Shown: positions 7,401 to 27,730 of the stretch, piece after piece
Layout of the letters: the number at the start of each line of letters is the position of its first letter
How positions within the stretch are numbered: position 1 is the stretch's first letter
DNA from: an uncultured Planctomycetia bacterium
GTDB lineage: Bacteria > Omnitrophota > Gorgyraeia > Duberdicusellales > 4484-171
Reading direction: 5' to 3'
NCBI GenBank assembly: GCA_964492865.1
Contig: CAZBLX010000001.1
Location: 1-27,730 of the forward strand
Length of the DNA stretch: 27,730 bases
Translations under genes and position numbers: made by a program
The notes under the pieces: model-generated
What the model saw: the letters and a program-made list of their open reading frames with translations, nothing else
The model's database searches: none
Told to the model about the DNA's origin: nothing

Positions 7401-10400
7401 AGAAATCTTAGGATAAGCTTTTATTATTAAGTTTTCTCCTCTCTTTACCAAGATTTCAGCCTCTTTTATTAACAAATTCCAATCTTCTCTTTTTATCTCT
7501 TCTAAACTTTCTCCAATCTCTTTTATAATCTTTTTTTTCTCTTCATAAGAACTAAATTTGCTATGCTTTATATCTACTTTTAAATTACCTTCTTCATCAA
7601 AATATCCCCAGACACTGCCCATCTCACTCAAAAAGAAAACTTTTTTCTTCCTGCGAATATCTTGAGGTAATCTTTCTCCTACCAACTCCTCCAAAGATTT
7701 AAGAGACTGTCCACTCACTATTACAAAAAATATGTCTTTCCTTACCAATTCTGATATTAACTCTATTTTCTTCTTTCCTAAAGGTATGGATGCTTTTTCT
7801 AAAGTATCATCATAATCAGTAAATATTGCTTTTATTCTGCCCCCATCTTTTAAAATCCTTTTTCTTCCTCTTCTTTCTGACTCAATATCTTTAACTACTT
7901 TCTCTAAAACTTCTTCTTTTATATCTGGTTCAATCTCTCTAATTATTTCAGGAAAATCTACTATCTCTCCTATCTCTTCATATTCTCTCTTCAGTCTTCT
8001 TGCTTCATTTCTTAATCTTCTGAAATATCTCTTTGCTATCTCATCTGCAGAAAATTTCAACCAGCTAACACTTAAATACGGTGAACCAATAACTACACCT
8101 TTTTTCTCTAATTTCTTTCTTTTCTCTTCTAAATCTGCAAATGTAATCCCATTTTCTGCGATAATCTTAATAAGTTTCCTCAATCGGGAAGTAGTCATCT
8201 TTATTTTAAATAAAGAAAATACTCTTAAAATGTCTTCTCGTTTGAGTTTTAAATGTTCATTTTCTTTTAAAAATTTCTCCAGAGGGTCTTCTGCCTTTAT
8301 CTTTTCTTCTATTTTCTGAATCAATTCTTCTATTTCTGAAGAATCAGAATACTTCCTTAATCTTTTTAACTTTCTTAATGCTCTTTTAAGCTTACCTTCT
8401 TTTATCCAGTTTTCTGCTTTTTTAAATTCTCTTCTTACCATCTCTTCTCTGTTTGCTTCCTCCAGAAAAACTTTTTTAGAACTTCTAAACATCTTTTTTT
8501 CTTGTGCTCTCTTTTCCTCAATTACCTTTATTTCTCTGCCCATTATCTTACTAATAATTTCCTCCCACGAAACTCCTCTTTTTTTCTTTATATCTAAAAG
8601 GGTTCTATATTCCTCAAGATACTGTCTTCTAAATCTTACTATGTCAAATACAGAAGAATCTCCTATAAATTCTTCTACTGCTTTTTTATATTTTGGCTTT
8701 TTTACTTCTTCTTTTATCTCTATCTCTTCCTCTTTTTTACCTACTATATCAGCAATAATTTTTTCTAAAGAAATTCCTTTCTTTCTTTCTATTCGTCGTA
8801 TAGTTCTGCATTCTTCAGGATATGACCTTCTAAACTCAGTAATATTAAATACATTTGAATCACCCATAAATTCTTTTACCGCTTTCTTATACTTCACCTC
8901 TTTTATTTTTTTCTCATACTCACATAAAGAATTCAGGGTAGGAAGAAATCCTTTCTCTATCCAGCTTGCTTCTAATCTATATCTTCTCAGTATACGACTG
9001 GTAACTTCACCTTTTTCCTGAGCTTTCTTTAAATCAGATAAACTTTTATAACCTAATATATTGGCTATAAAAAGCCAGGCTTTATATTGATTATGGATAT
9101 CCTTCCAATAGTTAGAAGAAATCTTTTTTAAACAGAACCAAGCAGCTTCTCTGAATACAGGGTTTTTCTTCACATAATTATGCGACTTATAAATTTCAAA
9201 AATCATTCCTTTAAATCGAGCAATTATTCCTCCCAGATGCATCTTATAAAATTCATCACGTCCAGGATAAAAGATATTCTTCTCGATCATCATATCTACC
9301 AACTTCTTTAAAGGAGTTTTCTTTCCTATTAAATCTAAAAATTCCCCAGGCAATGTTTTTCTTAGAAGCCATTCTAAAGCTTTCTCTTCTTTTTCTCTAT
9401 CCCAGCTTATATCTTTTATCACTAACCAGAATACTCTCTCCAGCAAAGGATAGTCTTTGTCAATCTCTGCTTCCTTTAGAATTTTTAAATAATCCAGTTC
9501 ATTCCTTTCTTGATAATAGTTTTTCAATCCAAAAAGACCAAAATTTACAAAACTTCTATAGCCAAAACATCTTAAATCATTTTCAATCAAATATCTTTCT
9601 GCTTCCTCTAAACTTATCCTTTTCTCTTTTAAGTTTTGAGAAAGCTTTATAAAATCCTTTGCTACTTTGCCAAATAACCATCTTATTGCTTTTTTGCGCA
9701 TCTTTATATTATCCCACTTTGTCTCTTTTAATAACCAAGGGGCTGTTTTCAAAACAGGATCCCATCTCTCAAGTTCAGTAACTTTTATAATCCATTCATA
9801 GTTCTTATCTCTTAAAAAAGAAAACTTTCTTTGTAATTCCCTAAAGGTTGGGTATCTTATCCTATTTGACAAGACAAAATTTTCCAAATCTTCATAATTT
9901 ATTTTTCCTTGATGATATTTTTCTATTTTTTCTTTATATTCTTGAGGCAATCTCTTTAAAATATATTCTTTAAGCTTAATTATTCTTTCTTCCTCTTTTC
10001 CTCCATCTTTAATAAATCCTTTCCCATTTCTATTTTTCTCCGCAAAAATCTTTAACAATCCTAATTTTTCTGTGACAGACTTAACATGAAGAAGCTGGGT
10101 GAGTTTAGGAATTCTATAGAAGAAAGAATTGGTGAATTTAAAATCTCTATCCTTAAATGAATTATTGAGCTCCTCATCAGACAAACCGTTATTATTCTTT
10201 CTATCCTTATTTTTATCAATCTTATTAAGCGAAATAGATAATTTCGTTTCTTTCCTCCCTCTGAAAGAAGAAAGTATGGCACTATTTCCATCTATGAAAC
10301 CTGAAATTCCCCCATCTTTTTTTTCCAACTCACGGGACACCAGAAACCTTATCCATGCATTATTAATTCTATTTTTAATCTCCTCAGGCTTATTAACATC

Positions 10401-13400
10401 CAACAATTCCTTTGATAAACAGCGCCAAACCTTGGTGTATCGAGGGTTAATAAAAAGTTCAGCGAAAGAATCGCGGGATATTTCATATAATCTCTTTATA
10501 AAACTCTTATCTTCTTCCTCTAAAGAATTGCAATCTCTGACAAATTTAAAAAAATCATTTTTTGCTTTTTTCTGCCAAGGCTGAAATTCCATAAACCAAA
10601 TTACGCCTCTTTTAGCAGAAAGGTATATAGCATTACTCAAAGTATTTGGTCCACGAACTACTATGGGCAATTCGCATAGTGAAAACAACTCATCAAATCT
10701 CTCTTTTTCTAAAGTTGTAGGAATAGAGATTACACTTATCTTATGACCTGTCGTTTTTGGAGAGATTTTAATACCAAAAATCGTTTCCCAAGGAACTTCA
10801 TAAACATTATAGTTACCTTTCTCAACCAAATTTTTAAATGTCTCATACTCATCAAAACCCCCTTTTCCAACTCTAAACACAAAAATAGTTAAATCCTCGT
10901 CTTTAAACTCCCTACTGCTTTCTCTTGCCTTCTCCAATGCGGAAAAATAAATCTCATACATTGAAAAATAAGCAAAACTATAAATCACACCCCATTTACT
11001 TTTTGTCAATTTATCTAATTCTTTGTCCTCAAGAGAAGGTAATAATTTTTCTAATAATTCCTTTTTTCTTTCTTTAATCTTCTTAGCCCCTTTAGGTAAG
11101 CTGTCTACCTTTTTCATAAATTCCTCATCTACAGGAGCTACCCCTACACATTTCTGACCAAATCCCCAGCTTAGGATACTATTTGAACTTCTCTCTTCAA
11201 AATAAGAAGACCCCTCAATTCCAAACTCATAGAGTTCAATTACCGGAGCTTCTTTCTCCAGTTTCGAAATAAAAGGCGAAATAATTTGTTCGTTTAGATC
11301 AATAGAAGCTGGTCTATAAACAATAATAAGAGAAACAGCTGAAGGCTTTAAGATTTCTTCCTTCATATATTGCCACGTATCTTTTGCATTTAACCAGATA
11401 AATTCCACATCTTCTGTGCTGAAAGTTTTTTTGTCAATGAAAGTTGCTTTCTTTATTTCTTTTATCAAATTTGATTTTAGAGCTTCTGAGATCGACGACA
11501 TTCTTAAGGCAGATATAAAATCATCACGGTTATGAAGTATCACTTTAATTTCTTTTTCAGAATAAATCTTTCTTAACATTTTTATAGTATTCAATATAAA
11601 TGGTATATCTCCACTTCCTCCTAACCATGATACAGGAGGAACGATAAAAACAATCTTTTTAAAATCCCTTTCTGATAAACTTTTTTCAATTTCTTCTCGG
11701 ATAAACATTGTCTTAAAAGATTTGAGTGCTTCCTTATTATCGTGCTTTTTCTTTTCTCCAAACGATTTTAAAACTCCTTTATAAAGATTAAAAATATAGT
11801 GACTACTACTAACTTTCTCTGCTGCCTCTTCTAAAACTTCCAAAGCTTTCCTGTCAAGAGGAGATACAGAGCTTTTAACTATAGAACTCAGCATCATAGC
11901 TATTACATCACGATATTTTCCTAAAGGATATTCTTCTAAAAAATCTCTTAAGGTAAAAATAACACTTTTACTAATGCAATTTGGATAAAACTCAATGAAG
12001 TGTAATAGACGACTTTCTGCTATGTGATAGGTAAATATATTTAAATTTTTTGTTTTAAGTAAACTAATAAGAAAAAGAATCTTTAACGGGAGAGGTTTTT
12101 TTTCTAAAATCTCTTCTATGGAATGTAATTGCCTCCGATATAACTCTGTATCTATATCTTCTATCTTCAATTTCTTTAGCTTCCCTATCTCTCTCAATAA
12201 TATTTCTCTTTCTTCCTCTCCGAAATATTTACGATAAATTTCTACAAATTCATCCAAATCATTAGGAATAATATTAAAAGTATCCTTAGAGAAATTGAGG
12301 CAATTTTCTTCTACTCCTTTCCCTCCATCATAATTATTCCCTCTAAATCTTTCTCGTATTTGTTCAAAAGAAAGTTCAGGATTTTCCTCAAGCATATAAG
12401 CAACACTTATAGCAACCCGAGGTGCAAGAAATGAATTTCCAACTCTTTTTTCTCCTTTAAATTCAACCTCTCCATAACGATTATCAAAATACAGTATATG
12501 AGCATCTTTTTCCTCATAGATTATTTTTTCTTTATTAATTTCTCTACTTACAGCAAGAACCTCTTTAAATGCAGCAGGATAACTTATCCTTCCATAAGCA
12601 TATTCATTGTTAGCAGCTGCAATTATTATTACGCCTTTTCGATAAAGTTCCTTAATAATCCTATGAACACTTTCCCATTTTTGTGGATCAGGATTGCTGT
12701 GTCCAGCAGTAATTACAACTATTACTCTTTTTCCAGATTTTTCAACATAATCTTTTATGATTAATAATGCTTCATTAAGAGAATCAACATATTCTTTTTC
12801 TGAGGCACATATTGTCCTAACGCGAATACTTCCTAACTCAAATAAACTCTTCTTAAGAATTTCCTCTACAATCTCAGCATGTTCCTCATTATCTCCTCTT
12901 ACATTGATAATCGCTACACTACCCTCTTTATGTCGAAGCCATTTAATTTGATTAATATTGCTTAATGATGCGGGTTGATGAATTTTTATGCTTGGTTTTC
13001 TTACATTTTTAAAGAATAATCTACAAAACAAAAATTTGGTGAATACAATAAAGATAATCTTTCTTAAAAACAAAAAAACTTGTTTTAAACTGTGGACAAA
13101 AGATGGGAAGAAGGAACTGAAAGAGATTATCTTAGCTAAAAGATTCTTCAAGAATGTTGTTAACTTTAAAGGCGGGGCTCTCAAAAAGAAATTTTTAAGG
13201 TAAATTAATAATAATCTTTTGAAAGAATAACTGGTTAAGAATTTGCTCCTTTCCTTTCTTGAAAATCTTAACCAATCGGTTATTATAAATGCAAATATAT
13301 TTTCCTTGACAGAGTTATATAAATATGTTATAGTTTGTTTGCCATGCCTGCCAATGTTAAACAAATAATTCAGGATTTGATTATCCCTGAGTTTAGAACT

Positions 13401-16400
13401 CTTTCTGCTGAAATTAAAAGATTGGATGAGAAGGTTGAGAACGTAAGAAGTGAATTTGAAGAAAAGTTTAAGAGATTGGATGAGAAGATTGAAAGTATAA
13501 GAAATGAGTTTGAAGCTAACTTTAGAAGGATTGATTCTGAAATTGATCTCCTTAAAGAAGAAATTAAGTTTTTGCGTGAAGAAATAAAGATTTCTATAAA
13601 CATTCATGAAAGACTTGCCGCACTTGAGGCAAAAATAAACAAATGAATTTTTGAATGAAATATTAGACTCCTTATCGAACAAACCACCATCATTCTTTCT
13701 ATCTTGGCTATTTTTAATCTCATCAGCAGTAAATAAGTCTTGAGATATATTTTCTTTTCTTGTTATTCTCTTAGCCTTTTGAATTCTGCCTCTTATCTTA
13801 CTACCAAAATTATCGATGTGTAGAGAAAGTAGATAACTAATTAAAAGAACCACTATTCCTGACTCTAAACCTAATGGTGCCATTATCCAAAGAGGTAAAT
13901 CGCCAGTATATCCTGTCAAATTCAACAAAGCGTATACTCCTGCTTTAAAATCTCCATAGTTTATTAACTTAAAGGCAGTACAGAAAGCAAGGGAGGCAAC
14001 ATAAATTACTTGCAACATTCCTATTCCGACTATCCAATAGTTATCAGTCCTTTTGCCTCTTCTAACTAACCAGAAACCTAATGTAGCATTATAAATGTTT
14101 GGCACAAAATTATTCAAAATCAAACCTAACTGTTTTGGTAAAGCAAAAGGTAAAATTGGCTGTTCAAGACGAACATATCTAACGGAAAAATCAGGAATAC
14201 TCTCTCTTTCAACAAAAGGAAGATATCTTGTTATAACTCCTCCTGGGTCCAGCCAAGATGGACAACGCACTTTATCTAACACATAATCAGGAAAGGTGAG
14301 GGTATTAAAAAGAGCATGAAGAAGTTCATGAGGTAAACTTATCAATATACACAAAGGTGAAAGCCCTGCTATCAGCATACCTAAAATTGTTTTAACTCCG
14401 CGCCGATCTGGAGGAAAAATCTCAATCATTCTTTGGTCTAAGTAGTTTAAGCAGTTCTTGGCAGAGTTAAAAAGACCTTTAATTACTGAGTAAAGAGAAT
14501 TGAATTCAAAATTTCTCTTTCTTCCTCCATCATTTCCTAAATTATTTAATAAGAAAAGTCGTTTTCTTTCTAATTCACTTAATTTCAATTCTTTTTCTCT
14601 AATCTCTTGTTCTGATTTTTCCAAAATTTTATTTCCTTTCCCTTTAATTACCTCAATAATAACACAAAACATTTTGTGAACTTTTCTCCTTATTTTCTTG
14701 ACAGATAAATATGTTATAGTTTGTTTGCCATGCCTGCCAATGTTAAACAAATAATTCAGGATTTGATTATCCCTGAGTTTAGAACTCTTTCTGCTGAAAT
14801 TAAAAGGAGTGTTCTGGAGTATTTTTAAAAGTTCTGATTTAAATAATTTCCTTCCTCCATCAACTTTATCTGCTGCTATCTTAAAAGACCCCAAATAAAT
14901 ACATTCAACAACATCACTAAACCTTCTGCCCCTTCCAAATGTCCTTTCACTTAATTCTTGTTCTGCCTTCTCATATGGTATACTCTTCTCCTTAGAAAGA
15001 TTACTTATTGCCCTTTGCCAGTAGATTCTGGAATATCTGTATAGTTCGGGTTTTACATAGATCTTTTCAATATATTTTAAAGGTATCTCTATGGGATTCC
15101 ATTCCCTATCATGAATTACCAGATTAGTTTTTCCATCTCCACTATTGTCCGTAATATCAAGATTCCTGAAGTCATTAAGCAGCTCTTTAGTATTTATGAT
15201 AGCAAGCGCTCCCCCCTCCTCAGCAAATTTTAATGGATTTTCCAGATTTCTTCCGATATAAACCCCTTCACCATATGCCTGAACAACTGAAACCTCTGTC
15301 TTATATTTCTCTCTTACCATGGAACCAGATTTTAAAGCCTTGTCTTCTAGGATACCCAATAAATTAATAATTATCGGTAAGTTTTCTCCTGCTGAAATTC
15401 TAATAGTTTTGGCTTTTGTCAAAGAAATACCATGCAGAGCAATATCATCCGGAACCTCGCCATTCTCCAGAAAGTTTTTCAATACTTCTCTGCCATAGTT
15501 CCTACTCTGCAGGAAGTTATAGATTTTATTTATTGTAAAGATCTCCTCAACGTCAGGGTATTTTTTGCATACTGGAGGTAAATCATCTAAATTCTTCTCA
15601 ATTATTGCTCTTAATTTTATCCGCAGATCGGACAGATTCATATATGGCGCTATCGTCCTGACGAGTTTTATCGTATCCTCTATATTCCAGTTTCCTCTTT
15701 CGGCAACATCCGTGACAAGTTTATTCAGATTTGTGCTTAATTTCTTAAGGATACTATCTCTTAGGAATTCGGGTAACTCCAAACCTATACCAAAACTTTG
15801 CCTTAATGCCTTTGAATAGATAAGTGAATCTTCCTCATCTAATTTCAACTCACCCAATGCCTTAGCTCTTACGAAACGAATAGCATCCGCCAGAACTATC
15901 TCTGCAACAGAATACTCAACAGCTGAGAAAGGATGAGGTCTTTCAGGATCAAATATTGAATCTATACCGGAATATATCTTAACTATACCATTCTTTGCAT
16001 AAACTATTGAATTATCTGGATCATAGACCTCAAATCTTTTATTGATTGAATTATAAAATATCTGGATTGCATTTATTCCCAGATCACTCCTGCTTATTGC
16101 GGATGTCTCACCTCTTATATCACCAATCTTCATAGAATTTGAAATTTTTCTAATAACCTTTTCTATTTCCTCAATATTCCTCTCGATAATATCCAAAGGC
16201 AGATATTTACCAAGATATTCATTTATCTTTTCCCTTCTTCTTCTATATAACTCCTCCAGTGCCTCTGGTTCAAATCTCTTTATCTTGTCTTCAAGATCAT
16301 CAAGAATTGATGGAATTGTTATTCTTTCTTCTTTTATCTCCAGTAATGTATTTTTAAACTCCTCGTCTTTAAATCTATCAGCGAATTCTTTTAAAGGAAT

Positions 16401-19400: not shown

Positions 19401-22400
19401 CATAAGCAATTCAGCAATATTCTCATCACTTATACCCTCAACTCTCAATTCTTTTATCTTTTCTAATTGATACTCTTTTATCTCTGAAATGACATCTCTC
19501 TTTTTATTCTTGGTTTCTTCATGTATCTGAGATAGGCCCTTTAATGAGAAAGTTAACTTGCTTTGCTCTCCACCATCATTCTTTCTATCCTGGCTACTTT
19601 CCTCAATCTCATCAAGTAAAGTAAGCTCTTTATTTTTCCATCTTATCCCTATCCAAGAGGTATACTCTCCATCAATAACTTTGTAATTTTTCTCTAATAA
19701 CTTTTCTTTCACAAAATCTTCCCATTTTCCCTCTTTGCTTAAGTAATCTATATAAATCCTAAATAAAATACTTAACAATTCTCCTCCCTCTTCATTTCTT
19801 AAAAAAGTAGGCAAATCCTTAAGATGAAAGAAAATCGCCCATTTAGGAAAATCTTTTCTTAACCATAACTCCTCCATTATAAGTCTTTTCTTTTTTACTC
19901 TATATTGAGAAAATATTAATGTGTTTAAACCCGCTCCTTCAAAAATTAATCCTCCTTCTTTCACTATTCCACTTATAGAAGAAAGTATCTTGTAAGCTTG
20001 TTTGTGAGAATAATGCATTAATACATTAAAAATTCTTGCCCAATCAACTTTTTCTTTTTCCCAATTCTTATCTAAATCTCTCAAATCTGCTTTTATAAAT
20101 TCTAAATTATTCAATCCTTTTTCTTTTTTAACAACTTCATAGGGTTTAAAAATAATCTTCTTTTCTTCAAAAGAGTCACTTTCTGTTTCTTTTTCATCAA
20201 AAAATATAAGTTCTGCTAATTCTTCTCTATTCTCTATTACTTCCAAAAGAGAAAAGCTATCTTTTAGAACAGAGATCTTTAAAAAACCTATCAAATTTTT
20301 ATTTTCATCCTTTAAAACGATATAATCTCCTTTCTTTACTACTAAATAAGCTACTAAATAAGGAATAACTTTATCCACCCCATATACTTTAAGTTGAGGA
20401 AATTTTTCCGCAAATTCAACAGTAGTAAAAGGGGTGGGTAATCCTGTTTTTCTATCCCAAGCCATACCTATTCCCAAATCAGCAAAAGCTCCTTTTTGAG
20501 GAGAAAATCTTTTCCTAAACCAGTCATCAAAATCTTTAAGTCTTTTCGGATAGGTAGTTAGAGGAATACCTCCATCTGAATTTATCCTTCTCCATTTATG
20601 AAAATAAATAAAAGGACGGCGAGAAATCTCTTTCTCTATACGCCTGCGATAATGAGAAAAGCCTTTCTCCTTTATAATTTGCTTAATATCCTGCCAAGAG
20701 ACATCTCCATACAAATACCAAAGATTAAGATAAACTTGTTTTCTCTCTTCATCTCCCAAGAATTTCAACCATTCCAAAACTTTTCTACTTTTTACTTTTT
20801 CTCTTATCATCTTAACCACACCTATCTTCTCTAAATCGTATAGAATTTTTACTTCTCTTCTATCTAATAGCTCTTCACAAATAATATCTTTTTCTCCAAA
20901 TAATCTTCTCAAAATCTTCTCTATCCTCGTATTTATCTTTCTTCCTCTCTCTTTCTGTCTTAACCTTTCCTTCTCAGTTTTTTTCTTGTAGAATCCTTTA
21001 TCTCTCTCTATACAAGCTTTTGTTTTCCTTTCTATCTTCTTCTCTCTTCTGCTTTTCTGCCGACTCTTTCCTTTTTTTCTGGTAAAAAACCTTTTTCCTT
21101 TTTGTAAAGACAAAATCTCTCCTTGAGGAAGATGAGCAGAGATAAATTCTACCTCACCTTCTTGATTAAAAATCTCTACTTCTATCTCTCTATTAGCTAA
21201 CGCAGCTCTTTTAACTTTTTTACCAGCAAATCTTATAGTTCCCGTCTTTCCTACCCAGAATCTTTTAAGCAAAAGTTTTCCTTGAGAAAGTTTCTTTAAA
21301 GTTTCCTTAGATAATTTTTGATAAAACACGCCTATTAAATTATCTTCCTTCCAAATCTGAGCAAAGATTATCCTTTTCTGAGAAAGAAGAACTTCTATAG
21401 GCTTACCTTCATAAAGAAGAACATTTGCATTTTTATATCTAAACTCTCTTCCTAATTCTGCCCATATTCTACCTGCAAAGATAAGCTCTCCTCTTTTGCC
21501 TAAGAAAAGATTCTTAATAATAATCCATTTACTTTGAGTTAATATTTCTTTCCTGACACAAGGCAGTTTTAAAGCATCAATTAATAAAATATCTTCCTTC
21601 TTTACTCCTTTATTTAAACTTTCAAATTCCAAAGTTATTTTTTCTATTCTTTTTTTTCTTTTAAAACTTTCCCACAGCTTTTTTAATTGAGGATTTTTCA
21701 AAATAGCATTTCTTACTCTTGTTCTTGAAACTTTTAAATCCTTAGCAATTAAGGTGATTTTACCTTTTTTCTCTATAATCTTTTCCTCCAATCTCTTCTC
21801 AAAAATTCTCTTTTCTTTCTGAAATTGACCTTCTAAAATTTTTCTAAGTAACTTTTTCCCTTCTTCAGTAAGAGTAAAAAGGTATTTTTCTTTTCTTTCC
21901 ACTATTCCTTTTTTGATTAACCGCCACAGAGAAAGATATATATTTTCTCTCTTTCCTCCTAACACCTCTTTTACTTCTTTTCTTATTTCTCCCCAGGAGG
22001 TAATACCTTCAGAGATCAAATAAATAATAAATAGAGTTGACTTAGAATAATGAGTAAGCCTCTCTCTTTCTAACTCCTCTACCTTCTTGAAAAATTCTTT
22101 TCTCCTTTCTTCTCTATCTCTTCCTCCATCTAAATATTTCTCTCCATCATCTTTTTTCCTCTTTTTCTTTAAATATTCCTCAAACCGGGAAGAAGAAAAG
22201 AAATCTTCATAAAATTGTTCAGGAGAAATCTTCTCATCTTCATTCTCCAAATGCTTAATTTTCTCATCATCCTGCTTTTCTACTTTAAAATCCTCTGTTT
22301 CCCTTATCCATTCTTTTATTTTCTCATTCCATAAATATCTACCAGAAGAGACAGGAATTAAAATCTTTTGTCTTACCATCCACTCAAAACTAGGAATAAG

Positions 22401-25400: not shown

Positions 25401-27730
25401 TAAACTTTTTGCGTCTTCTTTTAAAATCTCTGCTGCTTTTTTATTTATCTTTTCAGGAGAAGGTAGCTGAGAAAATTTTTCTTCTATTACCTTTAGTCCT
25501 TCTTCTAAACCAATATAAATATCAGAGTAAGGATATAATCTTTCTACTTTTGAAGGATGAAAATACTCTTCTAAAGTATAAAACCCTATATCTAAACAAA
25601 GCTCTCCGTGCTTTCTTCCCAACGCAGAAGGTAAATTCACAATTCTACTTTCTATCAAATCTAATCCTAAATTATTCACCCTTTCTTTTAAACAAGCAGG
25701 AAACTCTTCTCTCAACTCCATCTTTTCTAAAACATCCAACTCTCCTAACTTAATTACCTCCAAATCTAAATCTTCAATTATCTGAGAACTCCAGTCTATC
25801 TCCTGTGATGTTTTATAAAGATAGGTGGGACTGCCAGTTATAGCAATTGCGACTTTATATCCTTTCTCATTAAGCTTTAAAACAACATCAAATAAAATTT
25901 CCAATAAATTCTTTCTTCCCTGAGGAGTAATAATCTGCCAGGCTTGAGGGCTAAGATAACTTGGCATTTTATAGTTCTTCTCAAAGATACCCCCGTCTTT
26001 TTTCTGCTTACTAAAATTGACAGAAATATCTCTATTTAAAACACTCATTCCTTCCTCATCATTTAACTCTTTTCTTAAAATTTCTTTACCTTCAAATTCA
26101 ACATAATCTAATACTTTTTCTATTTCTTCTCTTATCCATTCATAAGGTATAGAAAAAATCTCTTTATTAATTCTTCCTTCTTCTATATCTTTCTTTATCG
26201 CTCTTCTGCTTAATCCATGAAAATCCCTTAATACCTCTATAAATTCTTTTAAAGTTACTCTCTTTAAAGGCTGATTATCTTTGGAACGGGAGGCAGTTAT
26301 ATCTCCAATCCTTTCTCCCTGAGGAGTGCTTAAAACATTTATCAACGACATATCATCACATAATACTCCTTTCTTGGTAACAGGATTAAAACTTTTTACA
26401 AAAATTCTAATATAAGGTTCCATTTTCCTTTGCACTACTTCTTTAACCCTTTCTTTAACTTCCTCATTCCATCTCTTGTAATTTTCGGTTACTCTTTTAA
26501 TTGCTTCTATTCCATCCTCTCCTTCTAAAAACTCTACTGCCATTACTGCTCTTAAGGAAATCTCATCATAATAAGGATCATCGTAGCGAGAAATTACCAT
26601 AAATACCTCACCAGGAGTAGCTACTGCTTCTCTATCTATCTTTTTAAGTTCAGCTAAAGCCTCAATTCTCTTTTTAAATACTTCCAAAATATTTTCTATA
26701 GAGTAACAGGCAGCAGGGTTGAATTCACTAATACTTACAAAAAGAGGATATTCTTTCTCTTGTGTTTTAAAAGTTACTTTATAACTTACATCTGGACGAT
26801 TATGCACAGCAAATTCTATTTTTACCTCCTCTATCTTTTCTGATCTTTCCACTTCAGGAAAAATCTTTACTAATACTTCTCCTAATAATCCTTTCTCTAT
26901 AAGAATCGAAATATCTTCCATATCTATATCAGGAACAAATACCCATCCTAATTTTTCCCGATGCTCTTTTATTACCTCTTCAGAAGGCATAATCTTTTCA
27001 ATCTTATCTTCTCCTATAGAGTATTCTTGAGAAATAGAACCAGAAACTGCCTTCTTGATTATCTCCTCAACATCTTTATCTCCCCCATCTTTTGTTTGCT
27101 TAGAGAACTTTTTCTTAAACTTACCTCTTGGTTGTTTTACATCTCTCCTATATATCAATCTTTTAACTCTACCATAGGTAACCTCTTTTCCAGCTTTAAT
27201 CAATTCTTGAATAATTAAATTTATTTCTTCCTCTGATACAGATCTTCCAAATATAAGCTTTGAATTCTGAGCCAATTTTTTTGAATCTATGATGGTAGCC
27301 TTAAAGTGTTGTAAGGCGTTTTCAACTAACCACTTATCTGATCTTTCCTCCCAATTTTTAGCTCTCTTTATCACCTTAAAACAATATCCATCAGATATCT
27401 CTACTCCAAATTTTTCTCTTACCACTCTTTTTACCTGTAAAATAGAAACTATCTTTTTCTTGTAGCTATTAGGATATCCTTTAGCCAAGAAGAAGATATC
27501 ACTTGAAGGTAAATTTAATCCTTTCTTTTCAGCATAGACTTTAATTTCTGGATATAGGTCTATTATCTTTCTGTAGCTTTTAGGATAAATCTTAGCTAAA
27601 CAGAAGATATTGCTTTGAGATAAACTTAATCCCTTCTTCTCAACATAGGCCTTAATTTCTGGATATAGGTCTATTATTCTCCTGTAGCTTTTGGGATAAC
27701 TCTTAGCTAAATAGAAAATATCACTGGGAG
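4500..27730 (-). CDS. Giant multi-domain protein, 5'-truncated by the window (>7,742 aa)
   Basis: Stop TAA at 4500-4502. The ORF track gives 7,662 aa from a TTG at 27488, but manual translation of 27489-27728 shows no stop and continuing tandem repeats, so the real start is outside the window. Several recognisable enzyme motifs are in frame. Confidence 0.93.
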   Translation of the reverse strand, partial: PSDIFYLAKSYPKSYRRIIDLYPEIKAYVEKKGLSLSQSNIFCLAKIYPKSYRKIIDLYPEIKVYAEKKGLNLPSSDIFFLAKGYPNSYKKKIVSILQVKRVVREKFGVEISDGYCFKVIKRAKNWEERSDKWLVENALQHFKATIIDSKKLAQNSKLIFGRSVSEEEINLIIQELIKAGKEVTYGRVKRLIYRRDVKQPRGKFKKKFSKQTKDGGDKDVEEIIKKAVSGSISQEYSIGEDKIEKIMPSEEVIKEHREKLGWVFVPDIDMEDISILIEKGLLGEVLVKIFPEVERSEKIEEVKIEFAVHNRPDVSYKVTFKTQEKEYPLFVSISEFNPAACYSIENILEVFKKRIEALAELKKIDREAVATPGEVFMVISRYDDPYYDEISLRAVMAVEFLEGEDGIEAIKRVTENYKRWNEEVKERVKEVVQRKMEPYIRIFVKSFNPVTKKGVLCDDMSLINVLSTPQGERIGDITASRSKDNQPLKRVTLKEFIEVLRDFHGLSRRAIKKDIEEGRINKEIFSIPYEWIREEIEKVLDYVEFEGKEILRKELNDEEGMSVLNRDISVNFSKQKKDGGIFEKNYKMPSYLSPQAWQIITPQGRKNLLEILFDVVLKLNEKGYKVAIAITGSPTYLYKTSQEIDWSSQIIEDLDLEVIKLGELDVLEKMELREEFPACLKERVNNLGLDLIESRIVNLPSALGRKHGELCLDIGFYTLEEYFHPSKVERLYPYSDIYIGLEEGLKVIEEKFSQLPSPEKINKKAAEILKEDAKSLVKRLKMQHTSPDYSKPVKFLTKAFLILGEEEVRYKLWRSFKEENINKKVYQEALKLLEQKIKEKDGGRVIIQQRKLPLLDKDLKNLELGEKVFRIKVGKNYYRLGKDRYILIELGDKKVFLADVHNLLNVFLLEEEIKDFILFHIDQHSDWVFPSVKYLSNFWLKNKEEKIRHLLSYGVGEFLSATSFYFSSSIFWITSPVKFEKLKMLQKEFEEIVRFETASFEKVVSLKEEIKVCQYLPKAASLDLDVFTQKDRGGKLSFKDVWRNYEELKPYTLRILNTSDLIAIFTTGQPWINQKVAKAIMQDLTKEIITQDGGKKEQIAKIERFPFYKGMLLTKNDFLVLLTLAEKGNLSFDELKDLLKGKLAGWEIKDALEKIDKNTDFLIQKEDRFILKESVRRILENYLKSKWEVNELLVSLRLPPRFIGFSWKNLRLGLGLREKEIKILKGLSSKLPREFDEKDLAILICIEKGKRKPSLVTDITGIYTQKSGKKIVEKRFLKLLNRGLIFQKEKFGDYYLNEELEIVLEKVLRNQASVEDLISVLTGRGRTFQEDAKRLISKFKKWEEKLLVTENDVKFLWAKSRGIPLRDLISPGSTTHTHRMKKLGLIELRNNKLILTKRGEEFINSLYDGTLTLKKAWDLGVTYWMKIDDKEIRLRRKRFKYWEEFVKELNSLWEGCRKLEEAGFRKLSSLALKILILYYMGVAEDSIAQLLGKGENLIFQYLKKLEEKGFLRKKDKKEGYILTKQAEEIILAIKKGKYPPLEELYLRVKKALEETGGNISAAANLLGLGRSKLRGMIKRNQELQELIEKYRRGIKGVEVKERREEKRKVLLSRKVIKKKDNLSARRKSIIREKTSLVRKRQEESRDEIRKKCYALLSQGRIEEVEKFIALYRKKFPQLFDEILQNLRIEEVKKIVRKLCQEHNYNKAKRLIRQRKIPPKIKEELLSKVEKEEDLWHTFSPYREALKLLGKKFPQGFLNRNLAEKEFAKLRKIKVKGLIPSFEWMVRQKILIPVSSGRYLWNEKIKEWIRETEDFKVEKQDDEKIKHLENEDEKISPEQFYEDFFSSSRFEEYLKKKRKKDDGEKYLDGGRDREERRKEFFKKVEELERERLTHYSKSTLFIIYLISEGITSWGEIRKEVKEVLGGKRENIYLSLWRLIKKGIVERKEKYLFTLTEEGKKLLRKILEGQFQKEKRIFEKRLEEKIIEKKGKITLIAKDLKVSRTRVRNAILKNPQLKKLWESFKRKKRIEKITLEFESLNKGVKKEDILLIDALKLPCVRKEILTQSKWIIIKNLFLGKRGELIFAGRIWAELGREFRYKNANVLLYEGKPIEVLLSQKRIIFAQIWKEDNLIGVFYQKLSKETLKKLSQGKLLLKRFWVGKTGTIRFAGKKVKRAALANREIEVEIFNQEGEVEFISAHLPQGEILSLQKGKRFFTRKKGKSRQKSRREKKIERKTKACIERDKGFYKKKTEKERLRQKERGRKINTRIEKILRRLFGEKDIICEELLDRREVKILYDLEKIGVVKMIREKVKSRKVLEWLKFLGDEERKQVYLNLWYLYGDVSWQDIKQIIKEKGFSHYRRRIEKEISRRPFIYFHKWRRINSDGGIPLTTYPKRLKDFDDWFRKRFSPQKGAFADLGIGMAWDRKTGLPTPFTTVEFAEKFPQLKVYGVDKVIPYLVAYLVVKKGDYIVLKDENKNLIGFLKISVLKDSFSLLEVIENREELAELIFFDEKETESDSFEEKKIIFKPYEVVKKEKGLNNLEFIKADLRDLDKNWEKEKVDWARIFNVLMHYSHKQAYKILSSISGIVKEGGLIFEGAGLNTLIFSQYRVKKKRLIMEELWLRKDFPKWAIFFHLKDLPTFLRNEEGGELLSILFRIYIDYLSKEGKWEDFVKEKLLEKNYKVIDGEYTSWIGIRWKNKELTLLDEIEESSQDRKNDGGEQSKLTFSLKGLSQIHEETKNKKRDVISEIKEYQLEKIKELRVEGISDENIAELLMTSPLKDERGRLARAILTEIYLKRARDVDRVLRKLEREGVRKERIEEIRERLMEIRRLIIRIRERLKQKWVLKKRLEVSDDEIRKKIRELIESGKEITFNTVVDSILTDALVERIEDGIEDETVRNFLSDLVRETPGIFIDKESVNFVKRHLELLIPILRIDGFVDHWTDSRLEFYSPMGFTDRVKELIYRLIILGVNSNKKNYQEKAVELFFKFGDVIERKDRNRIEENVRERFKERDEGISEHLIMLIFANRFGIEKVREALESKNVEFRQAINEFMSGLKCTEKLMELLDAFDALLMLGEDIIWNILKNQGSEFYRIISAIKDITPEFINIVKNNPEDVRTAFSNSDYSLWWLSELLNSIKKLPNFVDIINGIKLTRVYKLHIIFRCPIEEIKEDLKSFLDGIKYLREFDDEDIEKSLRYPYGFVGTIQLFGRYPEFVRVIQLFRKRSDLVEFNKKLRMEAICASLDGDPKYMKYIREIVQNIQKDLQEEDFIKILDSILREAGKEEIDFAFYISSRYSVEGINFFDILYILCLGKIARYIGLAGLRVLRDWLRFREARKMLVKAPGTFINGMKYIEEVSDKEEITSAISRTFTGFVLMTQTVGVNPNFINFIKIFGLLNASEFFENYMREPAFFDISKLDKYENIDTSTLSLEDLKYILLWELDDKFLKYMGLLSFKNILKGVPTRKLYKDIVIPEIEKFNADLNLMDEETRKRRNDAIVQLIRVLAIIESNEDIANYVLERDKKTGEYLFARAIKRLISEGIEIDRIVTSIIKYGDIWDRFTADDKTFEIIGKNIDKFSWIVPVVRYLKDSKRERELEVLDKLIREEIKPVNNESIWSLNRVEFPVYLMDYLEYGEEATNLGYIHGQLTPYRVDKIREALRIGDKKTIEKALEKGIWGKTLVEIAKQEKSIDDVLKERKRVEEENDAIKAEFEEWLNSDRVPKEVSEVLERIKEMSEDGWEIGITSGTARNMLLVFLGKLDRYEDHDFDNVLRKIDIPLKEFADRFKDEEFKNTLLEIKEERITIPSILDDLEDKIKRFEPEALEELYRRRREKINEYLGKYLPLDIIERNIEEIEKVIRKISNSMKIGDIRGETSAISRSDLGINAIQIFYNSINKRFEVYDPDNSIVYAKNGIVKIYSGIDSIFDPERPHPFSAVEYSVAEIVLADAIRFVRAKALGELKLDEEDSLIYSKALRQSFGIGLELPEFLRDSILKKLSTNLNKLVTDVAERGNWNIEDTIKLVRTIAPYMNLSDLRIKLRAIIEKNLDDLPPVCKKYPDVEEIFTINKIYNFLQSRNYGREVLKNFLENGEVPDDIALHGISLTKAKTIRISAGENLPIIINLLGILEDKALKSGSMVREKYKTEVSVVQAYGEGVYIGRNLENPLKFAEEGGALAIINTKELLNDFRNLDITDNSGDGKTNLVIHDREWNPIEIPLKYIEKIYVKPELYRYSRIYWQRAISNLSKEKSIPYEKAEQELSERTFGRGRRFSDVVECIYLGSFKIAADKVDGGRKLFKSELLKILQNTPFNFSRKSSKLRDNQILNYLFNIGRHGKQTITYLSVKKIRRKVHKMFCVIIEVIKGKGNKILEKSEQEIREKELKLSELERKRLFLLNNLGNDGGRKRNFEFNSLYSVIKGLFNSAKNCLNYLDQRMIEIFPPDRRGVKTILGMLIAGLSPLCILISLPHELLHALFNTLTFPDYVLDKVRCPSWLDPGGVITRYLPFVERESIPDFSVRYVRLEQPILPFALPKQLGLILNNFVPNIYNATLGFWLVRRGKRTDNYWIVGIGMLQVIYVASLAFCTAFKLINYGDFKAGVYALLNLTGYTGDLPLWIMAPLGLESGIVVLLISYLLSLHIDNFGSKIRGRIQKAKRITRKENISQDLFTADEIKNSQDRKNDGGLFDKESNISFKNSFVYFCLKCGKSFMNVYRNLYFFTQKLNFFFKEINFRINPSKVSFKLISYTFNLLIQSLKLFFKFTSYVLNLLIQSFNFSRKSSKLRDNQILNYLFNIGRHGKQTITYLYNSVKENIFAFIITDWLRFSRKERSKFLTSYSFKRLLLIYLKNFFLRAPPLKLTTFLKNLLAKIISFSSFFPSFVHSLKQVFLFLRKIIFIVFTKFLFCRLFFKNVRKPSIKIHQPASLSNINQIKWLRHKEGSVAIINVRGDNEEHAEIVEEILKKSLFELGSIRVRTICASEKEYVDSLNEALLIIKDYVEKSGKRVIVVITAGHSNPDPQKWESVHRIIKELYRKGVIIIAAANNEYAYGRISYPAAFKEVLAVSREINKEKIIYEEKDAHILYFDNRYGEVEFKGEKRVGNSFLAPRVAISVAYMLEENPELSFEQIRERFRGNNYDGGKGVEENCLNFSKDTFNIIPNDLDEFVEIYRKYFGEEEREILLREIGKLKKLKIEDIDTELYRRQLHSIEEILEKKPLPLKILFLISLLKTKNLNIFTYHIAESRLLHFIEFYPNCISKSVIFTLRDFLEEYPLGKYRDVIAMMLSSIVKSSVSPLDRKALEVLEEAAEKVSSSHYIFNLYKGVLKSFGEKKKHDNKEALKSFKTMFIREEIEKSLSERDFKKIVFIVPPVSWLGGSGDIPFILNTIKMLRKIYSEKEIKVILHNRDDFISALRMSSISEALKSNLIKEIKKATFIDKKTFSTEDVEFIWLNAKDTWQYMKEEILKPSAVSLIIVYRPASIDLNEQIISPFISKLEKEAPVIELYEFGIEGSSYFEERSSNSILSWGFGQKCVGVAPVDEEFMKKVDSLPKGAKKIKERKKELLEKLLPSLEDKELDKLTKSKWGVIYSFAYFSMYEIYFSALEKARESSREFKDEDLTIFVFRVGKGGFDEYETFKNLVEKGNYNVYEVPWETIFGIKISPKTTGHKISVISIPTTLEKERFDELFSLCELPIVVRGPNTLSNAIYLSAKRGVIWFMEFQPWQKKAKNDFFKFVRDCNSLEEEDKSFIKRLYEISRDSFAELFINPRYTKVWRCLSKELLDVNKPEEIKNRINNAWIRFLVSRELEKKDGGISGFIDGNSAILSSFRGRKETKLSISLNKIDKNKDRKNNNGLSDEELNNSFKDRDFKFTNSFFYRIPKLTQLLHVKSVTEKLGLLKIFAEKNRNGKGFIKDGGKEEERIIKLKEYILKRLPQEYKEKIEKYHQGKINYEDLENFVLSNRIRYPTFRELQRKFSFLRDKNYEWIIKVTELERWDPVLKTAPWLLKETKWDNIKMRKKAIRWLFGKVAKDFIKLSQNLKEKRISLEEAERYLIENDLRCFGYRSFVNFGLFGLKNYYQERNELDYLKILKEAEIDKDYPLLERVFWLVIKDISWDREKEEKALEWLLRKTLPGEFLDLIGKKTPLKKLVDMMIEKNIFYPGRDEFYKMHLGGIIARFKGMIFEIYKSHNYVKKNPVFREAAWFCLKKISSNYWKDIHNQYKAWLFIANILGYKSLSDLKKAQEKGEVTSRILRRYRLEASWIEKGFLPTLNSLCEYEKKIKEVKYKKAVKEFMGDSNVFNITEFRRSYPEECRTIRRIERKKGISLEKIIADIVGKKEEEIEIKEEVKKPKYKKAVEEFIGDSSVFDIVRFRRQYLEEYRTLLDIKKKRGVSWEEIISKIMGREIKVIEEKRAQEKKMFRSSKKVFLEEANREEMVRREFKKAENWIKEGKLKRALRKLKRLRKYSDSSEIEELIQKIEEKIKAEDPLEKFLKENEHLKLKREDILRVFSLFKIKMTTSRLRKLIKIIAENGITFADLEEKRKKLEKKGVVIGSPYLSVSWLKFSADEIAKRYFRRLRNEARRLKREYEEIGEIVDFPEIIREIEPDIKEEVLEKVVKDIESERRGRKRILKDGGRIKAIFTDYDDTLEKASIPLGKKKIELISELVRKDIFFVIVSGQSLKSLEELVGERLPQDIRRKKKVFFLSEMGSVWGYFDEEGNLKVDIKHSKFSSYEEKKKIIKEIGESLEEIKREDWNLLIKEAEILVKRGENLIIKAYPKISMVTVKFFEEKYLMKELAKLVKKRLRNIDSLRKFKITYSSVAIDISLVSKKEAVKDFLDFYKIPEDEIAVFGDSKNDISMLKVGKYSFFCGEKRLLPTDLQNRVRIVKREKIDEILRGFLNNFERRDGGRNLQEFIKIPDEDFYIEIKIGREYGGGEIFTLKKERVPFYMYQALRKIKEDEFFPQLCVFIGTEAWPLIIVYEILSKFLNIPQAQILAPEIHLINEDKKNLEKIKKEIALLKNSLNNPLRILIIDATSQTGKTLKKAEEYFSFFFPEAWIETLSLILNLSTLEEEISSYIGGVVEEEGLYHKYICCEWKGEIFCADDLKRWFSILRDLTFEFLEIEKEKYSAFDNLDSFVRIVFPQEKQEVDGGRDYTNKERIDFITRSYDWRAPDAEKYLTLEVIDAWVKGLIKSQKEFYKKDKLLCVVGKDARFSSERIAKRIIENLLNLGIDVIDIGLVTTPILYFATLYFDSDLGIMVTASHNPPRENGFKVVIKDKLGQRNPTTEEIKKISEYAKKSLDTQEFVGFKRKANLIRENSEKILKKYVNMVIASCWAKGASEWLSLQRKYSYKELVDSSDEFVEEKIKKQGLPLKGLKVVIDPANGTAGQALKEVLERLGAEVVGINMKPDGRFPAHLPDPTVKKNMDQAYEKLKEVDAHIAIGIDGDGDRIGAVAQIKKRRFDFQGEHILGTFVERILKEFPKAKIVVDVKMSDCIIKKIEELGGIPVTFKTGHANIKKKMRETGAVFGAEASAHMYPSWFGRNGFFDDSIQASLLLLLALKEVNWNTEKLINKLPSWHFSPDIRPPYHEFLLSKYKGNLKIIKKEVKKMLIEFARERSFGYSDIDGIKIFFKDKGWTLVRFSGTEAVLSTRVDAKLEEDFNWIAKEIYTFLIKEKIANFFADEYNNKEYFEERIKPLFDGGEREANRDLSSTFEVIIESEEKREIEKLQVITSLKETVRQNNPW
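4700..6270 (-). other. Domain of giant protein: alpha-D-phosphohexomutase (PMM/PGM family)
   Basis: VVGKDARFSS, catalytic phosphoserine loop GIMVTASHNP (about 5944-5970), metal loop DGDGDR (about 5389-5406), sugar loop GAEASAH and LVRFSGTE. All four motifs are intact. Confidence 0.9.
6480..6900 (-). other. Domain of giant protein: type I phosphoribosyltransferase-like
   Basis: LRILIIDATSQTGKTL (about 6615-6660) resembles the PRPP-binding loop, with the second acidic residue replaced by Ala. Confidence 0.55.
7060..7838 (-). other. Domain of giant protein: HAD-superfamily hydrolase, subfamily IIB (Cof-like)
   Basis: Motif I IFTDYDDTL, motif II IVSGQS, motif III SKKEAV and motif IV FGDSKNDISML. 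Confidence 0.88.
8540..8893 (-). repeat. Tandem 67-aa (201-bp) duplication within the giant protein
   Basis: KYKKAVKEFMGDSNVFNITEFRRSYPEE... versus KYKKAVEEFIGDSSVFDIVRFRRQYLEE..., with anchors at 8881 and 8680. Confidence 0.9.
9060..9980 (-). repeat. About three degenerate repeats of roughly 100 aa with conserved Trp
   Basis: PWLLKETKWD..KKAIRWL, FWLVIKDISWD..EKALEWL and AWFCLKKISSNYW..YKAWLF. Anchor Trp codons at 9735, 9426 and 9138. Confidence 0.65.
10066..10205 (+). pseudogene. Degenerate, internally deleted copy of the nested antisense coiled-coil cassette
   Basis: 10066-10083 matches 13300-13317 at 15/18. 10153-10205 matches 13651-13703 at 41/53, ungapped. An in-register mini-ORF at 10086-10160 reads MKKLGEFRNSIEERIGEFKISILK. 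Confidence 0.6.
10560..11670 (-). other. Domain of giant protein: GT-B glycosyltransferase resembling EarP (EF-P rhamnosyltransferase) family
   Basis: Ordered motifs GSGDIPFIL..ML, LYEFG, WGFG..VG, ERFDELFSLCELPIVVRGPNTLSNA and IWFMEFQPW parallel the recalled EarP motifs GDIGV, EYL, PGF..GG, YD.LL..CD.NFVRGEDSF.RA and W.IYPQ. Confidence 0.6.
12345..12925 (-). other. Domain of giant protein: subtilase (S8)-like, catalytic Asp apparently replaced by Asn
   Basis: VAIINV (Asp position), EEHAEIV (His), IIAAANN (oxyanion Asn), SYPAA..VLAV and GNSFLAPRVA (Ser motif, compare GTSMAAPHVA). Confidence 0.75.
13306..13334 (+). promoter_or_regulatory. Near-consensus sigma70 promoter, antisense within the giant gene
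   Basis: TTGACA (13306-13311), 17-bp spacer, TATAGT (13329-13334) with extended -10 TG at 13326-13327. The ATG follows at 13344. Confidence 0.8.
13344..13646 (+). CDS. Small coiled-coil protein (100 aa), nested antisense in the giant ORF
   Basis: E/K/R/I-rich helical protein with an 18-aa internal repeat (KRLDEKVENVRSEFEEKF / KRLDEKIESIRNEFEANF). It has its own promoter, no SD (probably leaderless), and casts a typical S/L/F-rich shadow ORF (13370-13603, minus). Confidence 0.7.
   Translation: MPANVKQIIQDLIIPEFRTLSAEIKRLDEKVENVRSEFEEKFKRLDEKIESIRNEFEANFRRIDSEIDLLKEEIKFLREEIKISINIHERLAALEAKINK
13815..14400 (-). other. Domain of giant protein: membrane-embedded HExxH metallopeptidase-like (M50B/DUF3267-like)
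   Basis: LISLPHELLHALF (HELLH at 14316-14330) in a hydrophobic helix, followed by further hydrophobic segments and a candidate third ligand in GYTGDL. Confidence 0.55.
14698..14828 (+). pseudogene. Truncated duplicate of the antisense cassette (5' part), with a 6-bp deletion in the promoter spacer
   Basis: 14705-14806 is identical to 13319-13420 (102/102). TTGACA at 14698-14703 is 11 bp from TATAGT at 14715-14720. ORF 14730-14828 encodes MPANVKQIIQDLIIPEFRTLSAEIKRSVLEYF. Confidence 0.8.
15050..15450 (-). other. Domain of giant protein: ADP-ribosyltransferase-fold (H-Y-type)-like
   Basis: IALHGIS, then GILEDKALKSG, then YGEGVYIG..PLKFA, then LVIHD..IPLKYIEKIYV. This order matches the HG / G.GvY / final-strand pattern of PARP/KptA-like ARTs. 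Confidence 0.55.
15830..16515 (-). other. Domain of giant protein: CCA-adding/poly(A) polymerase head-like nucleotidyltransferase
   Basis: IGITSGTARNMLL..DHDFD (compare VGGAVRD.LL..DiD), SRSDLGINAI (compare RRDFTINA), YDPD and ADAIRFVR..GELKLDEE (compare lRalRF..gf.id). Confidence 0.65.
19900..20500 (-). other. Domain of giant protein: class I SAM-dependent methyltransferase
   Basis: FADLGIG (motif I), VYGVD, LEFIKADL, IFNVLMHY and IVKEGGLIFEG. Confidence 0.72.
21690..24400 (-). other. Region of giant protein: array of winged-helix and Fis-type HTH domains
   Basis: At least five wHTH-like units ending in L.k.Gli.......y.LT..G-type wings, plus Fis-like ALEETGGNISAAANLLGLGRSKL (about 22995-23085) and KGKITLIAKDLKVSRTRV (about 21715-21770). 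Confidence 0.7.
24470..25100 (-). other. Domain of giant protein: UPF0489/arginase-deacetylase-fold-like
   Basis: ADVHN, FHIDQHSDW, SLDLDVF and IAIFTTGQPW, in the order typical of the HxDxHxD / xDxDxF metal-binding fold. Confidence 0.6.
25540..25900 (-). other. Domain of giant protein: Pol-beta superfamily nucleotidyltransferase-like
   Basis: IAITGS...EDLDLEV, followed by a third-acid strand LCLDIGF. Confidence 0.5.
26290..26850 (-). other. Domain of giant protein: possible protein-kinase-like (APH/RIO-type) fold
   Basis: VATPGEV, VMAVEFLEG, LCDDMSLINVL and RIGDI resemble the hinge, catalytic loop (D....N) and metal-binding Asp. The usual His before the Asp is absent. Confidence 0.4.
27450..27730 (-). 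repeat. Tandem 37-aa (111-bp) repeats in the giant ORF, at least 2.5 units, running off the window
   Basis: SDIFYLAKSYPKSYRRIIDLYPEIKAYVEKKGLSLSQ / SNIFCLAKIYPKSYRKIIDLYPEIKVYAEKKGLNLPS / SDIFFLAKGYPNSYKKK. DNA anchors at 27703, 27592 and 27481. Confidence 0.92.

Follow-up and report, generated by a model that had tools for sequence, protein, structure and literature searches.

Gene conversion and partial duplication among dispersed paralogues are well-known outcomes of concerted evolution, and cleavage at Gly-Gly is equally well known from viral GG-specific proteases, from ubiquitin-like precursors and from the double-glycine leader peptides cut by C39 peptidases. Both bear on a locus in a 27,730-nt stretch (the window) of contig CAZBLX010000001.1, assembly GCA_964492865.1, from an uncultured Planctomycetia bacterium placed by GTDB in the Omnitrophota. 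Here, a giant minus-strand open reading frame (ORF) is overlapped in antisense by a cassette made of a promoter and a small coiled-coil gene (copy 1), and by a second, shorter version of the same cassette (copy 2, 14698–14828). Comparison of the two with each other and with related contigs leads us to favour, as the probable though not secure reading, that copy 2 is a truncated second copy of promoter and small gene, nested antisense in the giant ORF, which has decayed, has recently been homogenized with copy 1 and has been kept in frame.

Two further kinds of described system come close. Embedded antisense long overlapping genes are known from Pseudomonas aeruginosa (PMC8850804) and Escherichia coli O157:H7 (PMC9927249); as in those cases, the two ORFs studied here lie on opposite strands, the embedded ORF has its own promoter and selection can be read from codon positions. 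In the published cases, however, the embedded ORF is evolutionarily young and the mother gene is conserved (PMC8850804, PMC9927249), whereas here the embedded gene is the conserved partner, free-standing homologues of it occurring in other phyla, and the only constraint on the mother frame is to avoid stops. A further difference is that such nesting is seen in no fewer than five different contexts, spread over two lineages (32% and 43% GC). The second kind is the giant genes of Omnitrophota, for which the authors propose proteolytic processing into several products (bioRxiv 10.1101/2023.11.21.568195). The giant ORF of the window shares with them a length of many thousand codons, membrane segments and an S8 peptidase domain, but it differs in containing whole cytoplasmic enzymes (PMM/PGM, HAD phosphatase, methyltransferase, Fis-type helix-turn-helix) joined by the tripeptide DGG. 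The words ‘antisense’ and ‘opposite strand’ are absent from the text of that paper, and the adhesion and cell-wall-degrading domains of the Omnitrophota giant genes were not seen among the Pfam matches here. We found no literature on DGG polyproteins or on genes nested in giant ORFs, and no published case of a conserved small gene that lies antisense at the module junctions of a giant ORF linked by DGG and in which stops are avoided.

Copies 1 and 2 share an exact direct repeat of 102 bp (13319–13420 and 14705–14806, plus strand), with all 102 positions identical on alignment, as the first-pass annotation had reported. The repeat copies start 1386 bp apart (3 × 462, that is, 462 codons), and the giant minus-strand protein carries the 33-residue stretch FNFSRKSSKLRDNQILNYLFNIGRHGKQTITYL twice in the same frame, at aa 4229 (copy 2) and aa 4691 (copy 1). 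In a gapped alignment of 13298–13420 with 14691–14806, which includes the −35 hexamer, identity is 94.3% over 123 columns with a single 6-bp gap; in the giant protein, FNFSRKSSKLRDNQILNYLFNIGRHGKQTITYL is accordingly followed by YLSVKK at copy 2 and by YLYNSVKE at copy 1. A chance origin of the 102-bp match is ruled out, and the next-best internal repeats of the window are 31–111 nt long with 73–94% identity. The repeated block starts with the final 10 nt of the promoter spacer and runs through the −10 hexamer, 9 further nt and the ATG with codons 1–26; its end falls 7 nt inside the first 54-bp tandem unit of the small gene. On the minus strand, copy 2 is contained in a DGG-to-DGG segment of the giant ORF of 110 aa (14523–14852). 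A 12-nt imperfect inverted repeat (TTTGTTTGCCAT / ATGTTAAACAAA) spans the start codon in both copies (13334–13365 and 14720–14751) and could be a fold in the mRNA or an operator.

The plus-strand ORF of copy 2 (14730–14828) reads MPANVKQIIQDLIIPEFRTLSAEIKRSVLEYF and ends at a stop codon at 14826–14828, giving 32 aa. Its codons 1–26 are identical to those of copy 1 and hold the conserved N-terminal segment of the family. After codon 26 it departs from the repeat and closes with six unrelated residues (SVLEYF), whilst copy 1 runs on to 13646 as a 100-aa ORF. The KRLDEK coiled-coil repeats and the C-terminal IHERLAALEAK are lacking, and four of the ten invariant family positions (D29, E30, L46 and R91) are missing.

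The intact cassette promoter (13306–13334, plus strand) has TTGACA at 13306–13311, a 17-nt spacer, a TG before the −10 and TATAGT at 13329–13334, and is the top sigma-70 match in 12800–15000, agreeing at 11 of 12 positions. The promoter remnant of copy 2 (14698–14720, plus strand) has TTGACA at 14698–14703 and a TG-extended TATAGT at 14715–14720, separated by 11 nt. Both hexamers qualify as −35 and −10 elements, the spacing lies outside 16–18 nt, and a sigma-70 scan with 16–18-nt spacers did not report this promoter; reading the sequence showed no usable −35 at 17 nt upstream of its −10. TTGACA with TATAGT, TATATT or TATACT at exactly 17 nt is found in copy 1 and in the related nested cassettes of contigs L006, L008, L009, L010 and L011, and the spacer sequence differs between nested members despite its fixed length. 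In L007, a contig from a strain 98% identical to the window, the 17-nt spacing is kept and the −35 is TTGAGA, not TTGACA (L007 ∼220, window 13306–13311); promoter strength may differ between the strains. Copy 2 is thus the sole family member with a spacing other than 17 nt. Since all six other nested members examined have 17 nt, the loss of 6 bp, which had been described beforehand as a two-codon deletion in the spacer, is supported as a deletion in copy 2.

The distance from −10 to ATG is 9 nt in both copies (ATG at 13344 and 14730) and is kept in close relatives; because the gap is so short, the mRNA would be near-leaderless. In E. coli, a TG-extended −10 can support initiation without a −35, and copy 2 resembles such extended −10 (TGn) sigma-70 promoters in retaining TGTTATAGT. 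The difference is that intact family members here keep a −35 at 17 nt, which suggests that the −35 matters in this organism.

Given that a TG-extended −10 and a 32-aa ORF survive in copy 2, as the first reading of the sequence had noted, copy 2 might be functional, its extended −10 promoter producing a short near-leaderless mRNA for the 32-aa peptide and/or an antisense RNA that would modulate the giant mRNA at the junction. The TATAGT and its 9-nt distance to the ATG are intact, the peptide retains IQDLIIPEF, the most conserved N-terminal segment of the family, and in L006 this 5′ part precedes another body (P0039). The defective spacing without a usable −35 speaks against a function, as do the missing invariant positions, the loss of the entire C-terminal motif and the lack of a terminator, none of which was found downstream of the ORF; perfect identity to copy 1, moreover, hides any selection on copy 2. 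We consider a functional copy 2 unlikely. Its function is probably nil or weak, and at most the TG-extended −10 would be transcribed weakly, giving the 32-aa ORF on a near-leaderless message and a transcript antisense to the giant mRNA.

The age of the exchange between the copies can be bounded from the relatives. Within the 102-bp block there are no differences between copies 1 and 2 of the window, whereas window copy 1 differs at 4 positions from L007, 6 from L006, 7 from L008, 17 from L010 and 21 from L009. Because the two copies are identical while the L007 orthologue differs at four positions, the repeat exchange is younger than the strain split, or ongoing. The identical block is bounded exactly by the 6-bp gap on one side and by the loss of copy-2 homology on the other, which has the pattern of a conversion tract limited by heterology. 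The likeness to gene conversion among paralogues extends to the diverged flanks around a tract of perfect identity that ends at heterologies, and to copies that are closer to each other than to the sister-strain orthologue; the difference is that the tract here lies inside the frame of another gene, so that only in-frame, stop-free outcomes survive. The first-pass annotation had called copy 2 a recent duplicate. A recent exchange stands, but a fresh 102-bp copy is less likely than a decayed older copy that was homogenized, because copy 2 is placed at a module junction like the full cassettes: it begins 16 codons past the DGG at aa 4210–4212, the same kind of position.

The requirement that the giant frame stay open is visible over the intact small gene (13344–13646, plus strand, 100 aa), which is codon-aligned antisense to the giant ORF, the two codon registers coinciding (both start at coordinates divisible by 3). 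Differences from the window at plus codon positions 1/2/3 number 15/9/36 for L008, 17/8/37 for L009 and 15/6/34 for L010. In the same comparisons the plus frame has 25–27 synonymous and 19–20 non-synonymous codon changes, as against 6–9 synonymous and 37–39 non-synonymous changes in the antisense (giant) frame. Since there is an excess at position 3 and the changes are mostly non-synonymous in antisense, the plus frame is the one selected for protein sequence, and the codon patterns show the embedded frame to be under purifying selection. In this phase, antisense stops arise just from the sense codons TTA, CTA and TCA. The nested genes of the window, L008, L009, L010 and L011 contain none of them (P from 4.4 × 10−3 to 4.7 × 10−5 per nested gene, given the Leu and Ser content of each), although 45% of the Leu codons of this genome are TTA and stand-alone homologues carry 4–7 TTA/CTA/TCA codons. 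On the contigs L008, L009, L010 and L011 the giant frame is stop-free end to end. Beside the cassette, a minus-strand spacer with no coding signature (12930–13318) is interrupted by 5–16 stops in each of five frames, while the giant frame is free of them (shuffle P = 5 × 10−5). Judged by these patterns, the giant frame across the cassette is shown to be constrained to stop avoidance only.

A more distant nested gene is that of L011, a 7217-bp contig of a metagenome-assembled genome (MAG) labelled uncultured Planctomycetales with 43% GC, whose small protein is 41% identical to that of the window. The L011 small gene is also codon-aligned antisense, and its enclosing frame has no stop over 2405 codons. 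This giant frame lacks DGG; inspection by eye shows HExxH motifs in it, and a stretch HNHP...D that recalls JAMM proteases.

Rearrangements elsewhere in the giant ORF have the same character. Contig L006 (94–96% identical) has an extra 381-aa TPR-like module at a DGG junction (window ∼7839, L006 754–1871), in frame and with DGG on both sides, and lacks ∼309 bp of the spacer adjoining cassette 1 (323 window nt, with 14 nt in their place), still in frame. These in-frame changes in relatives, together with the stop-codon avoidance in the nested genes and the spacer left open in the giant frame only, support the proposal, made when the sequence was first inspected, of ongoing rearrangement filtered for frame maintenance. 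Contig L021, of a relative from the same JGI sample (3300014913), encodes a protein, P0085, that is 85% identical to giant aa 3924–4205 and then unrelated, diverging seven residues before the DGG that adjoins copy 2. P0085 is an 843-aa partial ORF that fills its 2.5-kb contig, and corresponds to DRN08_05480, a protein of an NCBI MAG that is labelled Thermoplasmata archaeon; so short a contig was probably binned wrongly, hence the archaeal assignment. At 7015–7803 of L006, the cassette promoter and first ∼30 codons are joined to a C-terminal fragment of a PD-(D/E)XK nuclease (P0039, PF12705). The L006 giant frame stops at 7230. This join may reflect a genuine rearrangement, or else the contig is chimeric at its end.

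Under the reading that we favour, cassettes would settle right after DGG junctions of the giant ORF and then decay there. Copy 2 would have lost codons 27 onward through an internal deletion, a 6-bp deletion would have cut its promoter spacer to 11 nt, and the residual 102-bp homology block would recently have been homogenized with copy 1 by gene conversion, or recently duplicated. The surviving changes would all be multiples of three without stops, because ribosomes would have to traverse the region to reach downstream modules of the giant ORF.

A different history is suggested by the segment between the repeats, in which exactly one DGG-bounded module is bracketed. The repeats could be the scar of a module gain, in which a 1386-bp unit (the remainder of the small gene, the junction with its DGG and a membrane module with an HELLH motif plus leader) was brought in by homologous recombination inside the 102-bp block and left the block on both sides; its source would be a circular intermediate or another giant gene, and the copies would be insertion arms that can loop out. 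A whole DGG-bounded module has been gained or lost in strain L006, and the cassette, as the sole homology common to different giant-ORF contexts, could serve as a recombination site. This history is less economical, however, since it needs an intact gene behind a defective 11-nt promoter in the donor, and in the recipient a truncated gene behind a good one; an allele without the 1386 bp was not found, and L007 has the U1-repeat-D1 arrangement. We regard it as possible and clearly less probable than decay and homogenization of an older copy, which remains our preference.

Several points weigh against that preference. No independent assembly was found to cover copy 2, and the U2-repeat-D2 join is known from this contig alone. 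A scan of JGI metagenomes with the family alignment gave three loci, none from this locus; a scan of GTDB genomes returned L011 only, and a scan of IMG/VR DNA no match. An exact look-up of the 32-aa peptide had no match, look-ups with flanking genes gave no contig over copy 2, and when the module upstream of copy 2 was used as query, a single relative was retrieved, which diverges before the junction. A single genome, furthermore, fits gene conversion and simple recent duplication alike. The similarity of the copy-2 tail (SVLEYF and stop) to the 3′ end of the family is not significant, the observed score being reached by 18 of 500 shuffles for the best case, L010, and by 38 of 500 for L008; the internal deletion is therefore deduced from the position of copy 2 and from other remnants. 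Lastly, given its TG-extended −10, copy 2 may not be silent.

The same gap in coverage bears on whether the contig could be mis-joined or collapsed at the 102-bp repeat, or the unit tandemly repeated more than once. Related assemblies do break at or near cassettes: L008, L009 and L010 end 46–223 bp past the gene, L001 and L002 end at window 10340 and 9749, and no second contig spans copy 2. However, the four flanks are all different, the 6-bp gap that abuts the repeat among the differences, and L007, from an independent assembly, covers copy 1 with both flanks and continues to 14101. Both joins also preserve an open frame of 7,700 codons, a rare outcome for a random mis-join, and 102 bp is shorter than the k of 141 suggested by related contig names (k141_...), so that a collapse is not required. 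An assembly artefact is, on this evidence, very improbable, although a collapsed tandem array of the 1386-bp unit is conceivable.

The 100-aa plus-strand protein has 54 database homologues, which share the N-terminal IQDLIIPEF, the KRLDEK coiled-coil repeats and the C-terminal IHERLAALEAK. The distant ones are stand-alone genes in ordinary neighbourhoods; one (L014 10001–10393) lies between rplU (L21) and rpmA (L27). These comparisons show the cassette gene to be conserved; it has free-standing homologues and, in the window, is nested antisense. No characterized family was found for the small protein, only coiled-coil noise being returned by Pfam, NCBIfam, PHROGs, PADLOC and PDB. Within the small gene, a 54-bp tandem repeat (13414–13521) encodes KRLDEK heptad units, the number of which varies between the paralogues P0002, P0003, P0005 and P0008.

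The giant ORF runs on the minus strand from window 27488 to 4500 when counted from its first TTG (7662 codons), and its frame is open to the window end at 27730, giving at least 7,743 codons with an incomplete 5′ end. This stop-free ORF (4500–27730, minus strand) consists of ∼18 modules joined by DGG, a motif found 17 times in the giant protein against 1.0 expected, and located at module boundaries. Modules begin right after DGG without a start codon, as in the HAD module, DGG-RIKAIFTDYDDTL. An origin of DGG as a Shine-Dalgarno artefact (GGAGG) was rejected, the Gly codons being variable (GGG GGA, GGT GGT etc.); because its codons vary, the motif acts at the protein level. Likewise rejected was the idea that the giant ORF is an antisense by-product of genes on the plus strand, since the Pfam and PDB domain matches sit in the minus frame. 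The PMM/PGM enzyme in the giant frame has all four Pfam domains and matches solved PMM/PGM structures with E = 3.5 × 10−56, and further modules are a HAD phosphatase, a methyltransferase-like module, a Fis-type helix-turn-helix and a small S8 subtilase-like module. From these features we infer a polyprotein that would be cut at or after DGG. It resembles the Gly-Gly-cut polyproteins in having a short Gly-Gly motif that recurs at module boundaries, but here the window ORF gave no sign of a C39, Ulp or DUB-type domain, and any cleavage is putative.

The S8 subtilisin-like module (12321–12932, minus strand; Pfam PF00082) adjoins cassette 1. Scanned alone, it scores 29.2 bits for PF00082 (cut-off 21.8), and its best NCBIfam match is QhpE-like, under the cut-off of that family. 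On the other side of cassette 1, the membrane module with the HELLH motif (13683–14522, minus strand, 280 aa), which the repeat copies bracket, gave no family match, and the segment spanning copy 2 and this module gave no homologues. The modules on both sides of cassette 1 (12321–12932 and 13683–14522) look protease-like. At its 5′ end (27449–27730) the giant ORF has 111-nt (37-aa) tandem repeats, LAK.YP.SY...IIDLYPEIK.... It is flanked by genes for lumazine synthase, a chorismate-binding enzyme, PRA-CH and MCP, and in related contigs NusB, RibD, MazG and RNase H come next; since housekeeping genes flank the giant ORF, the locus belongs to a bacterial chromosome. No known RNA families were found in the window.

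The extent of the cassette is defined by the relatives. Giant-frame translations of L008–L011 match that of the window just over the cassette (aa 4590–4735, nt ∼13284–13721) and the copy-2 region, and the modules that flank the cassette are unrelated between the window and L008–L011. The unit (13284–13721) consists of the promoter and the small gene in antisense, together with the DRKNDGG junction. Two further remnants without the small gene lie at module boundaries, one of the junction SQDRKNDGG (19570–19630, 84–94% identical) and a degenerate one of the junction and 3′ flank (10153–10225, 73% identical). An interpretation of the cassette as an insertion sequence or miniature inverted-repeat transposable element was rejected, there being no terminal inverted repeats at its ends and no transposase domain in the window. 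A tentative wider proposal, to which we give rather less than even weight, is that the cassette (∼440 bp) is portable and has evolved together with giant polyprotein genes in two or more bacterial lineages under dual-strand selection, its dispersed copies being homology islands for in-frame gain, loss or swap of modules. Were this so, copies 1 and 2 would bracket a protease-like membrane module able to loop out or move, and antisense transcription that starts in the cassettes might partition or adjust expression over the length of the 23-kb mRNA.

A partial duplicate alone would be ordinary. Here, it gives direct evidence of a bacterial ORF of >7,700 codons remodelled under a ‘no stop, no frameshift’ filter, one that holds even where the other strand encodes a different, conserved protein. 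The locus is a clean natural case of dual-strand constraint, with protein sequence selected on one strand and openness on the other, and it favours continuous read-through of the giant ORF as a single unit. It also matters for annotation, as gene callers give either the small gene or the giant ORF at this site, never both. If cassette copies mediate module exchange, this would explain how giant multi-enzyme genes are assembled.

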